Assembly: GCF_964194155.1 (NCBI RefSeq) | Contig: NC_135889.1 | Location: 111,972,001-112,036,000 of the forward strand | DNA length: 64,000 nt | From: Cetorhinus maximus | Lineage: Eukaryota | Direction of reading: 5' to 3' | Part shown: one piece after another, positions 24,187 through 61,234 of the stretch | Numbering within the stretch: position 1 is the first letter of the stretch | Layout: the number at the start of each line of letters is the position of its first letter | Position numbers and translations under genes: made by a program | The notes under the pieces: model-generated | The model's input: only the letters and a program-made list of their open reading frames with translations | Told to the model about the DNA's origin: nothing | Databases searched by the model: none

Positions 24187-24345
<159 letters not shown>

Positions 24346-26644: not shown

Positions 26645-26836
<192 letters not shown>

Positions 26837-30252: not shown

Positions 30253-30453
30253 AAGATAAAACCTGGACTGTGATTCAGCACAACAACACTGAGCTAACCA
30301 TAGTGCGAGGCTCTACTGCAGAAAAACCTCACCTCGTGCATTTTAACTACAATGCCAGCATGGAACAGCTTCAAGCCATGATTAACAGTATGGACTACTG
30401 TGAGCAGAAAGTGGCCTACCACTGCAGGAAGTCACGCCTTTTAAATACGCCCG
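30253..30453 (+). CDS. CNTNAP5: Coding exon (201 bp) of the CNTNAP-family gene; fibrinogen-like domain
   Basis: Acceptor tcAG| and donor |GTaagt. Translates (E)[79 protein letters not shown] and VAYHCRxSRLLNTP resemble CNTNAP5 most. Lies within ORF 30219..30479. Confidence 0.95.
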
Positions 30454-32084
30454 GTAAGTACATGTGCCAGAAATTATGAAACTAATTATGTTGGAACATT
30501 AAAGTTTAAAATCAGTCTCTTCCTTCTCATTGCAATGATCAAGAAATGCCTAGTGCAAAATTAGCTTCAGTCAGAAGGCATTACTTCTGTTTGACACTGG
30601 AGTGTCATGCTCTACAGTGCTATCCTAATAAACTGGGAACCTTCACAGGCAATGCATAATGATTGCCCTAAATCAAATCTCGATGTCAGGAGAACATATG
30701 GATGGTGCAAAAATGATGAGGAAAATGTATTGGTTGCTTAGATATTAGATAAATACATTAGGTACTTTGATATGCCTAAAAATGACAAATATAATGGAAT
30801 TAATGTATCATACATTTTTATATTTTCCCTCCACTCGCTAACCTGCATCATTCCTTAGTTCCTTGGCATTATGTAACTGACTGATGGAAGATATGAAATG
30901 TATCTAGAGCACACTAACTTGATGTACTGCTTATTTTCCTCTAATTTCTGTAGGTTCACACCTAGGCTTGCTCACCACCTTCCTTAACTCAATAGGCCAG
31001 ATCAAGGCCTCTATATGTAGAGCATGAAAGCTGTATGTGCATAATTTACCATTCTGGTCCAGTTGTGTTAATAATCAGGATGTCTATTGACACCACTGTA
31101 TCAGCAACAAGATGGGACTTATGGCAGGACTTAGAAGAAACAAATGCAGTTTACAGCGAACAAAGATAATTTACTCAACAAATAAAGCAAACAAAGGCTC
31201 ATTAGAAAGTCTATTTAATAAAATTATCTAAGAATTGCAGCAAAGAGAACTCCTGAACAAAACTGCAGCAACTTCTACCAATAAAAGCAGGATTATTTTT
31301 CCAACAAAGTGCAATCAGTGGAGGGTAGTTACATTATGTTAATTATGACTGCAAAGTCAATCCTCATTACTTACAACCTACAGCAGTGTAGTCTCCAGAC
31401 ATTATTGATGGGGGAATTACCCAGTCCTCTCCATTCTGGTCAGGAGTAGTGGTGGCATTATAATCTAACCCACCACACCACCAGGTAGTAGATAAAGCTA
31501 CAAGTATATTAAAGGAAATAGTATCCCAACACAACAATGTTCAGGCATCAGTCTCAGTAGGTAATCCAGTTGTAGTGTGCATGGCAATGTGGCGCAATTA
31601 AAGCATAAGAAAGGTTCTGGAGTAAAAGCTTCAAACAGCTTTATTCACTTAAGAAAGATGTGCAAGAACCTACAATAGCAGGTCACAAAGGCCTATTCAG
31701 TTTTGACAGGCAAAACGCAGTACACAGCTAGTAGAGCAGAAGGTGACTGCTTACCTGTCTCTGCTTGGCGAGTTCAAAGTTTTTGGACATTGGCTTAGTA
31801 ATGAAAAATGTGGAAATGTAAACAAGTCAGGAAAAATAGCATTCCATTAGGTGCGGAACCTAATTGAATAATCTATTTTTAATTCAGACCTTTGGTGGCT
31901 TCATTTTAAAAGTGCACCTGGTTTTGGTAACCTGCCTTTTCTCTGAAGCTGACTGGAGCTATTTGAAGTTTGGACAACTTAAGAATTCTATAGGGAAAGA
32001 AGCTCTGCTTCTAGCATTATTGAACTCCCCATGGTTTTATTTTGCTTTGTATCTGTTACAGTTCTGTCATGTAGTAAACATTAA

Positions 32085-43642: not shown

Positions 43643-44960
43643 TGTAATATAAGGGTGTTCAGGCACAGCAAGGCTAATGTGAGACCGGGAAGCAGTACCG
43701 CCCACAGTGTGATGTAAAGAGAGGCACATGATAGTAGACTGAGTACAGTAGTAGTCTAGCAGAAGCCAGCATGGAGACAGCACCCAAGCAGGACTGTACC
43801 TTCGAGATGTATATAGTTATGAGTTGTTAATAAAGACTTAATGTTCAACCATACAAGTCTGCAGACCTCTCAGTTGGACGCCAAACAACCCTTACTACAT
43901 GGTTTTTGTGAAGGATGGACCCTGAATTCCCGATAGCTTGAAAAAGTAAAGAAACTGCAGCATGACCTGATGAAAAACACCAGAAGCAAAGAAGGAAATC
44001 ACCAGAGAAAAGCTCCAAAGCAGGATTGGAAGCAGAAGGCAGAAATAAAATGCCACACTGCAGCAGAAGATGCCTTTGAGTCCCTTGGAAGTCCAGCTCC
44101 GATACCAAGGAGTGCAGAATCAGATGACCTGGCAGGGCCATGCTAAAAAATTAAGTTTTCGGCAAGGATAAGTTAAAAGAAGCTTTTCAGTCAACAGCAG
44201 TCAGAATTGCCATTTTAAAACGCACCACAAATAGCCCGAATCCCGAGTTGGTGCCTGGACATGCGGCAGCTGAGCTAACTCCAAACAAAACACAAATTAA
44301 ATAACAAATAATCGGCAGTTAAAAGACCCATCAAAAGCTGGGAATCGACGATCTCATGACCTGAAAGTACTTATATACTGTGGGGATGACTCAGAGAGGT
44401 TAATCCAGGGAGTCATTGCTGAAAATTTAAAATACAGAAATCGTGAATGCTATTACTGTGGTAGCCCACCAGAACCGACAAGTGCAGGAAACCTTATTGT
44501 GAAGAAGCATAGTGCAGTACGATCTTGGATTCCCTAACAGCATTTTAAAGCTATACACATATTTAAATTTAATGATCATGGATCAAAAATCTACCTTATC
44601 AGGCCAGTTTGGACCCATGCAAGGGCCAAACTTAACCCAGAATTAGGAATCATGGAGAAGAAAATTTAGATTGCAGGAGCACATCAGGATTAAGTAAGAA
44701 GTCAGAAGCAGTTCAAGTTAATATGTTTTTTATTATAAATGTTTGCTATATCTGCACCTGAAATAATCTTAATGCAAGGCATTGATGAATCCTCAGCCAG
44801 CTTTGATGAAATAGTAAAAACTTTTGACAAATATTTCAGTCTCCAAGTTATGGAGAGCACACCCCCAGTAAAGCACTGAACACCCCTGATAAAGCACTGA
44901 AGGATCAAAAAGACCCCAGGCCGAGGGAGACAGGAAATCCCAGGCCAAGGGAGACAATAC
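43643..44960 (+). mobile_element. Gypsy-type LTR retrotransposon remnant: 5' LTR (43643-43899), PBS-like TGG at 43900, leader, gag N-terminus (44578-44860)
   Basis: LTR has TG...CA ends, an imperfect terminal IR (tgtaatataagggtgtt / aacaacccttactaca) and AATAAA at 43829. gag remnant reads MDQ...QN*ESWRRKF / SGLSKKSEAVQVNMFLL*M...SFDEIVKTFDKYF. No 3' LTR seen. Confidence 0.78.
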
Positions 44961-45074
44961 CTAAGCAAACTACGTGATGGTAGCGGTCAAACAGTGAACC
45001 AGCTGGAAGTCATAAAAATAAATCTTTTTGAAAATGCTGACACATTTCCCAAACTGCATCAGCTGCCTGGCTAT

Positions 45075-45935
45075 GGGTTGAAGGTGAAGTCATAGCGTAT
45101 TCCATTCCAAGCTACAAGCAGATAGTGAAGCCACAAATAGTATGATTACAGAACTGAAATTAGTTAAGACTTCACCGGAGTCAGACCTGGGGAACAGCGA
45201 AATCAAAATCAAAGACAAGGATAATGATCTGCAGAAGGAGAAATAAAAGGCAGAAAAAAGGTCTAAAATGATTGTATTAAAGTTGAATTGGAAAACCTGA
45301 AACGCAAGATTCAAGCTGTTTGAAAACACATGATAAACTAAAGCCTTGAATGAACCAAATGTCCAAGATCTGAACAAACAAATTTCTGAGATGTTACAAA
45401 GGTACAAGGAGACTTTGAAAGAAACAAAGAGGTTGAATGTTAAGAAGAATGCAATATGTACAAATCTGAATTGTGTGCAAGCTCAGAAAAGCACAAGGGG
45501 AAAATAGCAATGCTGAATTCCATTGTTGGCAAATTGAAAAGGGAGTTGGAAAAACTCAACCAGAAGAGCAGCCCGGAAAAATAGCAGGCAGAAGATGTAC
45601 TCAAAGAAGTTGCTGACTTGAGAGACTCTTTGAAGAATTAATATATGACCCTGGGAAAACATGAGGAGTCACAAAAGATGTTGAATACTACTTCAGAAAA
45701 AAGCTGCATTGGAAATATCAGCAGTGACGAAGCAATGCACCGAAGTGCAGTGTGAGTTGGCAAAAAGTTAAAAGAAAATAAGCAGTTGAAAGGGCAGCCA
45801 ATCATCCTTCAAGATCAAATGCAACAGAAGTACATAACCCTTCAGCAGCATGAAGAAATGAAGGCAACCTTGAACAGTAGAATGGAAAAACAGCACAAAC
45901 ATATTTCTAACCCAGTGTCTACATTTAGAAATTAT
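45075..45935 (+). pseudogene. Decayed, intron-less coiled-coil coding fragment of the UACA/RAI14/ANKRD24 family (most like UACA)
   Basis: Across stops and frameshifts it reads NVQDLNKQISEMLQRYKETLKETKRL / SEKHKGKIAMLNSIVGKLKRELEKLNQK...LKN*YMTLGKHEESQKMLNTT / KENKQLK...LQDQMQQKYITLQQHEEMKATLNSRM. The repeated Y-hydrophobic-x-x-x-x-HEE motif and block spacing are collinear with my recollection of the UACA coiled coil. Confidence 0.7.
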
Positions 45936-47741
45936 GTCACGTAATTAAAAATAAAAGTGAAGTTGTTCTGCAACTTACTGTAGGATTTTGATTCATGCTA
46001 GTAATTTCCCAAGAGATGAGTTCCTGCTCTAATAGGACTGTTGACTTATTGCTGTATGTGGAAAGAAGTACAGGAAATCTGTGCTTATATATTAACTGAA
46101 GAGTGACAGAAGTGCTGAACTTGGAAAAGAACAATATGTTTGTTAAAACATGAGAGAACATCTAATCTTGGTAAATTAAAGAGTTTGCTAATTTAAGCAT
46201 GTGTGATATCTTACACATACATCTGTGTTCTGAGACTTCTATCCAAGCTTTGCTTGCCACTTAGCCTGTTCAAATTAGTATTATTAAAGAACAAACCCAT
46301 CAGCCCCTCCACCAGTACAAAGTTAGCACAAGACCAGAAAAAAAACCTTTCTACAAATCTTTTAATGTTTTTAGTTAAGCCTTTAACAACTGGACAAATA
46401 TCTGATTATGAATGAGGTTCAAGAATATTGCGAAAAGTGTAGGCTGAGATAATTACACATAAAAATGGTTTTGCACCTTGGTATCAAAGGAACATTGTGT
46501 ATGCAGTATAACTGATAAAGTTTGAATAATGCCTGTTAAATTTGAACATATACTTTTTTTTACAAAAAGTTATCTTTGTTGGAGAAATTCCAAGGTTTTA
46601 TGTTATCTGAAGCATTGCCTGTGGCTGTTCACAGCTTGCCAAATTCAAGTAAGTTGGGCCACACTATAGCAGACAAATTTATATATATATATTGAATTCG
46701 TTCATGGGATGTGGGCTTCGCTGGTTGGGCCAACATTTAATGCCCATCCCTAGTTGCCCATGAGAAGGTGGTGGTGAGCTGCCTTCTTGAAGCGCTGCAG
46801 TCCATGTGGCGTAGGTACACCCACAGTCCTTTGAAGAGACTGAATTTGTTGAGCCACATGGCATTTATTCATTCATTTTGTGGATGCGTTCTTCTACTTG
46901 TCTGAGATGAATTTGTTGAATTCTGCATGTATATATCCAGAGATAAAAATCAAGTCTTTTCTAATAGTCTTGCCAACGTTGCCAACATCCTAAGAAAAAA
47001 TAAGTTGAGATAAAATATCCTCTCTTATGTATTTTGAGCTTTTAATTTAGAAAATTGTCTCTGGTTCAGTGTTTCAAGTCATTCCTGTGAGCAAAAGATG
47101 TCTCTCTAAAGCATGGATTATCTTTTGCCTGCTCAAGGTAAATATCTAGGTTTTTTTAACATGATCATGAATAAAACTGCAAAACCTTGTTACTGTATGG
47201 CGACTTTCTGGTTATAGAATATGTCCTCATATGATTTTTTGAATGATGGAATATGATGGAGTAAACTTTTCATTAGAACAAGGCTTCCGTTATAAACTGC
47301 CAAGCAGATCTATTAATGATGAATGGTTAAGTGAACGAAATACATGACACAATGTAGATTTTCAATAAATAGCTACCTCTCCTTGGATGGTAGAAAAATA
47401 AAAGTTATTAATAAATAGTAATAACTACTGCGCTAAACCGCAAAACAACTTGAATTGGACATCAGCTCGTTGAATATTTACCCTTACATGGTAATTTGAT
47501 TTTACAGTCTCTCTGATATATTTCTCTCTTATGTCTCCAGACAACTTATCCAATTTTGAATGAGACAGACCGAGAGGTAGCTTCCAAAATTTGATAAGCT
47601 TAAAGGAAATTTAAATATGAGTCTCTTATCACAATAAGGAATACCAATCAAACATATGCATATAATAAAACCCTACAAGATGCTTCCATCTCAATTGAAT
47701 ACTTGGTCACTTTCTCAGACACCTAATCAGACATGATGAAT

Positions 47742-59778: not shown

Positions 59779-59902
59779 TTAAGGCTGTAAAGATGAAGAA
59801 ACACTGTCACTCGATTTCACACTCACAGTCAGCAGCTCAGATGCTGACACTGCATCTAATTTAGAAAGTAACACATCTGCACATAGCGAGACGCCAGATG
59901 TG

Positions 59903-60086
59903 AGTGGCCTATATCCAGGGGCAGGAGCAAGGATAACGCAGGTGCTGGGGCTTGCAGGATTTCTGCTGCAGAGGACTCAGATAGGCACTTCAATGGGGCA
60001 GCTTACGGAAGAATGCTGATGGGTAACCACAACAAAGTGCCCGGTGCATTGAGAAGTCTGCCAGGAAGCCTGAAGCCAACGTGAAG
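59903..60086 (+). repeat. 184-bp direct repeat, copy 1 (native position in the Myb gene)
   Basis: Identical to 61051-61234 except one base (cctgAagcc vs cctgAggcc). Confidence 0.95.
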
Positions 60087-61050
60087 GAACATGGAGGAAT
60101 CCAGCACCAGTTTCACCTGGGGCTTCATCAGGAGATTGGCGTCCATACCATCCAGCATGGAAATGCTGGCCAACTCCATTCCCACACTCGAGCACTTAAC
60201 CAATACCTGCTGGCCGATATTGCTGTTTCTACTGCAGCACCTTCAGCGGCCACTCATAGTCTGGTTGCAGCAGTGGAAGCTCAGATTGCTGTCATGCAAG
60301 CTTACACTGCAACCATCATGATTGTGGGATAGCAGTGTGCAAAGAGACTTTTAGGCAATCCATCTAGCAGTCTGTCCACTAGTTGATTCTCTGGAACATG
60401 AACCTGCTTTCTACCCTCAAGATAGCATTCATCTTCCCACTCCTGCCACCCTGCCAGTGTCCCTGCTGTTTCCTGTTAGCCAGCAAGGCTAGGCTGGTGC
60501 CGCCCATGCCAAGAGCTGTTCAAGATCATCCTCCCAAGGCCATCTGCACCATCTTCAACTTTCCTCCAGCCATGCTGCAGTCTCTGAGGTAACAGCATGT
60601 CGGAGATCGAGGACAGGCAAAAGCAGACAGAAGAGCTGGCAGTGAGAGAATGCACAAGGGTGAATAGTTGACTGTTGTATGCAATATGAAAGACTTCATT
60701 TATAAACTTGGTTTGCAATGTTTATTTTGAGGTGGCTTTTATTTTTACATTGTGTCTCGGTGAATAATGCAATGGGCATTGACAGAGGAAAGGTACAGAG
60801 TGGCCCAGTTTGTGAAGGGGGAATTGTGGTTACTGGTATTGCAATTGTCGGAATTTCACACAGACAGCCCAGGTAGAAATGGACTGTCTAGGTTCCCTTT
60901 TCTCTTCTTAACCCTGCTCCCCCTCCTCATGTTCTGGCTCTTCAGCTGTTTGCTGTGTAGCCGGTGGCAAGGGTTGTCCCCCCATCATGGCGAGGTTGGG
61001 CAACATACAGCCAACCACTAAGAATCTTGACACCTGCTCTGCTGAGTGTC

Positions 61051-61234
61051 AGTGGCCTATATCCAGGGGCAGGAGCAAGGATAACGCAGGTGCTGGGGCT
61101 TGCAGGATTTCTGCTGCAGAGGACTCAGATAGGCACTTCAATGGGGCAGCTTACGGAAGAATGCTGATGGGTAACCACAACAAAGTGCCCGGTGCATTGA
61201 GAAGTCTGCCAGGAAGCCTGAGGCCAACGTGAAG
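61051..61234 (+). repeat. 184-bp direct repeat, copy 2 (ectopic, inside the transposase)
   Basis: Interrupts the minus-strand transposase between LK*HF and (Y)SAEQVSR. Confidence 0.95.

Follow-up and report, generated by a model that had tools for sequence, protein, structure and literature searches.

The locus studied here raises the question of whether a retrotransposon has taken up a piece of a host gene. In 64,000 nucleotides of the basking shark Cetorhinus maximus (RefSeq assembly GCF_964194155.1, NC_135889.1, positions 111,972,001 to 112,036,000 of the forward strand; the whole stretch is called the window), a long terminal repeat (LTR) and the start of a gag gene are followed on the same strand by decayed coding sequence related to UACA, a coiled-coil protein. 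The original prediction, made from the letters alone, proposed a non-autonomous LTR element in which host mRNA had replaced most of gag-pol by template switching. We found that window positions 43643-45899 hold a dead element, truncated at its 3' end, which belongs to a non-autonomous Ty3/Gypsy family of many copies, and that complete copies add pieces of ninein and of spliced TPR, which goes beyond that proposal. We give a probability of about 0.85 to the reading that the UACA, ninein and TPR pieces were acquired by template switching between RNAs and are passenger cargo.

A multicopy family of cargo-carrying elements

Complete copies have the order LTR, primer site, gag start, UACA, ninein, TPR, pol tail, LTR. 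They are about 3-5 kb long, later insertions excluded, and all copies seen are decayed. At loci chosen by gag similarity alone (rows 3-18 of the gag match list, one skipped), UACA was present in 15 of 15, and ninein and TPR in 14 of 15 each. Host cargo was present at none of 20 loci chosen for a complete gag. At 20 loci chosen by UACA similarity, TPR was present in 18 and both LTRs in 11, within the 9.9 kb fetched. The multicopy, gene-carrying LTR family envisaged in the original prediction therefore exists, given UACA at every gag-chosen locus and 316 genome-wide matches to a 22-nt UACA word (control, 5).

Paired LTRs were found at 22 loci besides the window, one of them cargo-free, with a median identity of 83% and Kimura two-parameter distances of 0.12-0.25. 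A 5-bp target duplication (4 or 5 of 5 bases matching) was observed at 11 of 14 end-anchored loci, that is, at 10 of 13 with cargo and at the one cargo-free locus. The chance of such a match is 0.024 per locus, and two mis-anchored rows were scored as misses. In complete copies these duplications flank the LTRs, not the gene pieces.

A 22-nt word over the ninein-TPR joint had 272 genome-wide matches (control, 0), so this junction is present at at least 272 loci. Each of the two words matched 5 of the 15 gag-chosen loci, and by this calibration the copy number is roughly 800-950, the range of uncertainty being broad (about 450 to 2,700).

The family also misleads annotation. Two basking-shark proteins listed in RefSeq as "uncharacterized" (P0122 and P0123; LOC144678955 and LOC144682709) are UACA-derived cargo pieces. 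A Pfam search for TPR gives a further example: all 150 scored loci were above the cut-off, and only the best was the mapped TPR gene locus.

Parents of the cargo and evidence for RNA capture

The parents of all three cargo pieces encode long coiled-coil proteins. The UACA parent is an intact 911-codon open frame on C27, 95% identical to the named white-shark UACA. Behind UACA lies a piece that matched shark ninein (E 7e-21) and corresponds to aa 1168-1256 of Mustelus ninein; its source is a giant exon of the C19 host gene, to which the copies average 79% identity. The TPR parent is the host gene on C18, whose exon 4 matches human TPR structures. The TPR pieces in the copies pass the Pfam PF25481 cut-off; a protein-database search with the TPR piece gave no match, full-length TPR being beyond the length range searched. 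Two short cargo segments have no assigned parent; one of them, at 44985..45085 in the window, matched none of the UACA, ninein and TPR loci compared.

The copies contain TPR exons 3-10 and 12. Six junctions are cleanly crossed, with introns of 740-7492 bp gone, and this is direct evidence for RNA capture. Two more jumps within TPR skip parts of exons at words common to both sides, one of 13 nt. The joints between host pieces also fall at common words: 9 nt within UACA, 5 nt between UACA and ninein, 7 nt between ninein and UACA, and 13 nt between TPR exons 9 and 10. In the window, the lack of introns in the UACA-related coding was part of the original case. The coiled coil is real; its intron-less state is no evidence of splicing, because both UACA pieces lie inside a single 2.7-kb host exon (aa 408-1315). 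The replacement of most of gag-pol by host sequence is thus supported, with the evidence for RNA coming from TPR and not from UACA. Likewise, the search for crossed exon junctions and microhomology found no crossed junction in UACA, six in TPR, and common words of 5-13 nt at the host-host joints.

Kinship with Ty3/Gypsy elements

The primer site in copies L046, L062 and L140 reads TGGTGGCAGTG and is the complement, over 11 nt, of 3' ends of tRNA-Leu-type genes in the host. Dozens of tRNA-Leu-like 3' ends lie on chromosome C24 between about 1.5 and 65 Mb; of these loci, one was called as tRNA-Leu(AAG), one has an AAA anticodon and one was not called. Behind TPR, the copies have a tail in common with cargo-free relatives, the pol C-terminus, a G-rich purine run (purine tract) and the 3' LTR; the pol tail is all of pol that the cargo family has.

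Three relatives (L158, L167 and L171) have the same LTR, gag and tail as the cargo family. They are decayed, near-full-length Ty3/Gypsy elements, and L171 retains a 520-codon protease-reverse transcriptase frame. In L158 the domain order is protease, reverse transcriptase, RNase H, integrase, as in Ty3/Gypsy elements. Pfam matches to reverse transcriptase (E 3.8e-23) and RNase H (E 2.2e-10) in the relatives pass the cut-offs, whereas those to protease (E 0.009) and integrase (E 5e-4) do not. The window LTR is 73-76% identical to the LTRs of L158, and the gag of cargo copy L132 is 47% identical to that of the relative L038. One relative gave matches to a zinc knuckle at E 0.0019 and to PNMA at E 0.11. 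A structure model of gag (predicted local distance difference test score 62) gave no meaningful fold match, and a sequence search of PDB was also without a match.

Further relatives (L033, L038-L040, L043, L166 and L172) are cargo-free and pol-deleted, and have a full gag and the start of protease. These are likely the lineage that received the cargo. A Gypsy reverse transcriptase beside copy L051 was set aside as that of a different family, with no LTR, gag or tail in common at any of 18 loci.

Subfamilies and a second lineage carrying TPR

The most collinear form (L062, L106, L135 and L139) has gag, UACA in gene order, ninein and TPR. Subfamilies delete or reorder this cargo at common words. 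In L132 and L138 most of UACA is missing, and another group retains about 45 bp of it; in the type seen in the window, a late UACA piece comes first and the start of ninein leads back into UACA. Template switches that recurred among co-packaged RNAs would account for these mosaics.

A second LTR family (L088:3935-5941, L096-L102 and L105) has LTRs of about 1.25 kb, a SCAN-domain gag, a zinc knuckle and a protease remnant. Its cargo is TPR, without UACA or ninein: exon 1, beginning with the start codon, and exons 3-7 follow gag-protease in frame, and in L088 an open frame of 669 codons is retained. The TPR exon sets of the two families each have exons absent from the other. Differences from the host that are common to the TPR of both families are mostly silent (18 synonymous, 3 nonsynonymous), as drift of the host gene would give. 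Nevertheless, six TPR amino-acid states are common to both lineages against the host, and at one of these human TPR agrees with the host. These common states make an independent capture by the second lineage doubtful; a single capture followed by exchange is no less likely than two separate ones.

Two other sets of loci were set aside. Seven second-family loci (L089-L095, on C24, C215, C1272 and C1433) match one another at 99-99.7% identity across about 10 kb, flanks included. They are a recent segmental duplication containing one old copy, with LTRs 80% identical, and not young insertions. Long open frames around the TPR matches in L087 proved to be tandem repeats.

The window copy

All parts of the window copy are on the forward strand. 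The 5' LTR (43643..43899, 257 bp) starts with TG at 43643, ends with CA at 43898-43899, contains AATAAA and is directly followed by TGG, as originally described, and the same sequence is the one that brackets the 22 other loci. A decayed primer-binding site, placed by comparison with L046, L062 and L140, lies at 43900..43917. The untranslated leader at 43918..44577 belongs to a type that the short-UACA subfamily and cargo-free relatives also have. The gag N-terminus named in the original prediction was confirmed; it starts at the ATG at 44578, and 43900-44577 lies upstream of gag and is untranslated. The gag N-terminal part (44578..44860, about 95 codons with stops and frameshifts) is homologous in tblastx to L158, L167 and L171 up to about 44860. 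Both predicted tandem duplications (44859..44961) were confirmed. The first is 21 bp, twice, at 44859-44901; the second, at about 44914-44961, is also present in L048 and L135. The second unit comes from the gag linker preceding the zinc knuckle.

A coiled-coil-like segment found in all subfamilies (44985..45085) leads to UACA piece 1 (45086..45159, about aa 1185-1210, bounded by alignment with copies), which stands ahead of piece 2. Next come a segment of about 85 bp and the first bases of the ninein piece (45160..45264), with the ninein-UACA joint at the common 7-nt word. The decayed UACA piece 2 (45265..45899, about aa 716-934) follows, and the element breaks off at its 3' end. The predicted UACA-family coding was borne out by matches to the host exon of 87% over 45105-45159 and 80% over 45265-45894 (521 of 655 alignment columns). 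Family matches stop at about 45899, and 45895-46690 is single-copy. The DNA at 45900..46690 (forward strand, one match genome-wide) is host sequence outside the element and includes the AATAAA at 45950, which had been taken for part of it.

Beyond the bases noted above, no ninein, TPR or 3' LTR was found in the window or in 10 kb on either side; the absence of a visible 3' LTR had been noted before. Contigs of the same species and three runs of a second species bridge the 3' break, and contigs of the second species also bridge the 5' insertion edge, at about 95% identity. The truncation is thus real and old. The copy is a mosaic, with the leader of one subfamily group and the cargo of another.

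Elsewhere in the window, exon-like frames at 24205-24330, about 26670-26800 and about 30340-30480, on the element's strand (+), are putatively of a contactin-associated-protein type, a gene name taken over from the original prediction; EGF was the only domain confirmed. A 188-bp direct repeat (59899-60086 and 61047-61234) is 99% identical, its units 1148 bp apart.

Age of the capture

Twenty-one copies, aligned with X at breaks, formed one clade with support of 100. At all 14 lamniform-specific sites these copies keep the ancestral state, and at 20 of 21 sites that separate sharks from rays they have that of sharks. An approximately unbiased test with 8 copies (2,000 replicates, fewer than advised) rejected two placements, one next to the host alone and one on the galeomorph stem. 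It did not distinguish among positions around the Lamniformes-Carcharhiniformes node, nor did it reject the next node down (p 0.06). On these comparisons, the capture maps near the Lamniformes-Carcharhiniformes split. A preprint dates order-level shark splits to the Early-Middle Jurassic (10.64898/2026.02.13.705779), and the three-gene cargo is probably of Jurassic age.

Proposed history and alternatives

We propose that a pol-less lineage took up three host RNAs near the Lamniformes-Carcharhiniformes split, reverse transcriptase switching template onto co-packaged host RNAs. Copying in trans would then have spread the element to roughly 800-950 loci, and later switches between subfamilies would have reshuffled the cargo. 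The mosaic copy in the window would have lost its 3' half by deletion before its species split from the second shark. The cargo was most likely a passenger throughout, its frame kept mainly because common words of coiled-coil messages tend to fall in frame.

Several observations count against this history. No intact helper element was found, and the closest relatives are decayed. For UACA and ninein an RNA origin is what we infer, both pieces being single-exon. The joints between element and host run through segments with no assigned parent, and the evidence from common words covers host-host joints. The frame bias at joints is somewhat above its null expectation (16 of 19, against 45-73%), and the lack of a fixed stop in 423 UACA codons is left partly unexplained by pure passenger status.

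The last two points bear on the possibility that the cargo was selected, as a fusion protein of Gag start, UACA, ninein and TPR, or as a source of anti-TPR small RNAs, that would have helped element RNA to pass the nuclear basket or to travel within the cell. Among junction classes common to at least two copies, 16 of 19 keep the frame and no class consistently breaks it. Two of the three unclear ones seem to be noisy repeats of classes already counted, and not every class is independent of the others. Two large common deletions are of 33 and 21 nt. Majority spans from gag to UACA and across a segment without an assigned parent are multiples of three, the lengths in individual copies being noisy. 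No UACA codon has 20% stops; ninein and TPR have four such codons, two of CpG type, and no stop is fixed. TPR is in frame behind gag-protease in the second Gypsy lineage too. Published work also speaks for the idea: TPR is reported to retain unspliced retroviral reporter RNA (PMC3258255), and TART-A to have captured nxf2 (PMC7785250).

However, the ratio of nonsynonymous to synonymous change (pN/pS) was 0.8-1.3 in every frequency class, in a test weakened by recurrent mutation, and TPR changes fixed in the second lineage only stand at 21 nonsynonymous to 8 synonymous, a neutral ratio. Common words of 4-9 nt fall in frame 45-73% of the time by chance, which gives a P for 16 of 19 of 5e-4 to 0.21, and single-copy joints were in frame in 9 of 13. 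Subfamilies differ freely in which parts of the cargo they have lost and in the order of the rest, and the amino-acid states common to both lineages favour one TPR capture or an exchange over repeated capture. On balance, we read the cargo as a passenger and its frame bias as mostly mechanical, and regard selection as unlikely. One specific form of it, in which a Jurassic Gag-anchored coiled-coil protein of UACA, ninein and the TPR N-terminus stayed in frame despite many rearrangements because it served as a decoy or tether at nuclear basket and centrosome, and TPR spread to the second lineage for the same benefit, is an equally long shot. Were the cargo selected, an LTR element would be tied to a known gatekeeper of unspliced RNA.

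It is similarly improbable that UACA and ninein entered as DNA or pre-mRNA, by read-through from an element in or near the gene, with TPR alone coming from spliced mRNA. Both pieces lie wholly within giant exons, so splicing would have left no trace either way. Yet introns of UACA or ninein were seen in no copy, the two pieces are joined to each other and to spliced TPR at short common words, and the three host genes sit on three different chromosomes. Finally, a lone UACA retrocopy inserted into an LTR remnant, suggested by the missing 3' LTR and the AATAAA at 45950, is refuted by the same gag-to-UACA layout repeated across the genome; moreover, neither a poly-A tail nor a target duplication of its own was seen around the piece, the AATAAA lies in single-copy host DNA, and the UACA match ends mid-exon.

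Comparison with known systems

Template switching between RNAs thus remains our preferred origin for the cargo, and its mechanism has precedents. A literature search (main texts) found no published report of the shark family, which Repbase or Dfam may list. LTR-mediated retrocopies, including multi-gene chimeras and further copying, are described in animals by Tan et al. (2016, PMC5131818). Like the shark family, these have host RNA in place of internal open reading frames, short common words at joints, two LTRs, multi-gene chimeras and non-autonomous copying. As described there, they are young and low-copy, whereas the shark cargo is a standing three-gene part of several hundred to about a thousand loci, probably Jurassic, and reshuffled. 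In maize Bs1, likewise an LTR element, parts of three host genes make up one chimeric frame (PMC13317346); according to that review it carries enzyme and transporter fragments in a plant, in contrast to a vertebrate element with three long coiled-coil proteins, the copies of which are decayed where seen. Crocodilian endogenous retroviruses with KIT-ligand or nectin3 also hold host mRNA inside a vertebrate LTR element that spread. They are reported to carry one whole gene, in six to nine copies, under purifying selection (PMC4299795), whereas the shark family has fragments of three genes in hundreds of copies, with amino-acid constraint not detected. Drosophila TART-A resembles it as a retroelement with part of a nuclear RNA export gene (nxf2); TART-A, as reported, is a non-LTR element with evidence from PIWI-interacting RNAs (PMC7785250), and the shark family is known from DNA sequence.

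The mechanism is therefore already known; the shark family stands apart by its scale and age, by reshuffling that went on in a vertebrate, and by its all-coiled-coil parentage. Multi-gene capture by an LTR element appears here as a standing, high-copy feature of a vertebrate genome, beyond the one-off retrocopy. Hundreds of dated copies with many distinct joints are a natural archive of switches between host and element RNA templates, and these joints permit a direct test of whether frame-keeping is mechanical or selected.
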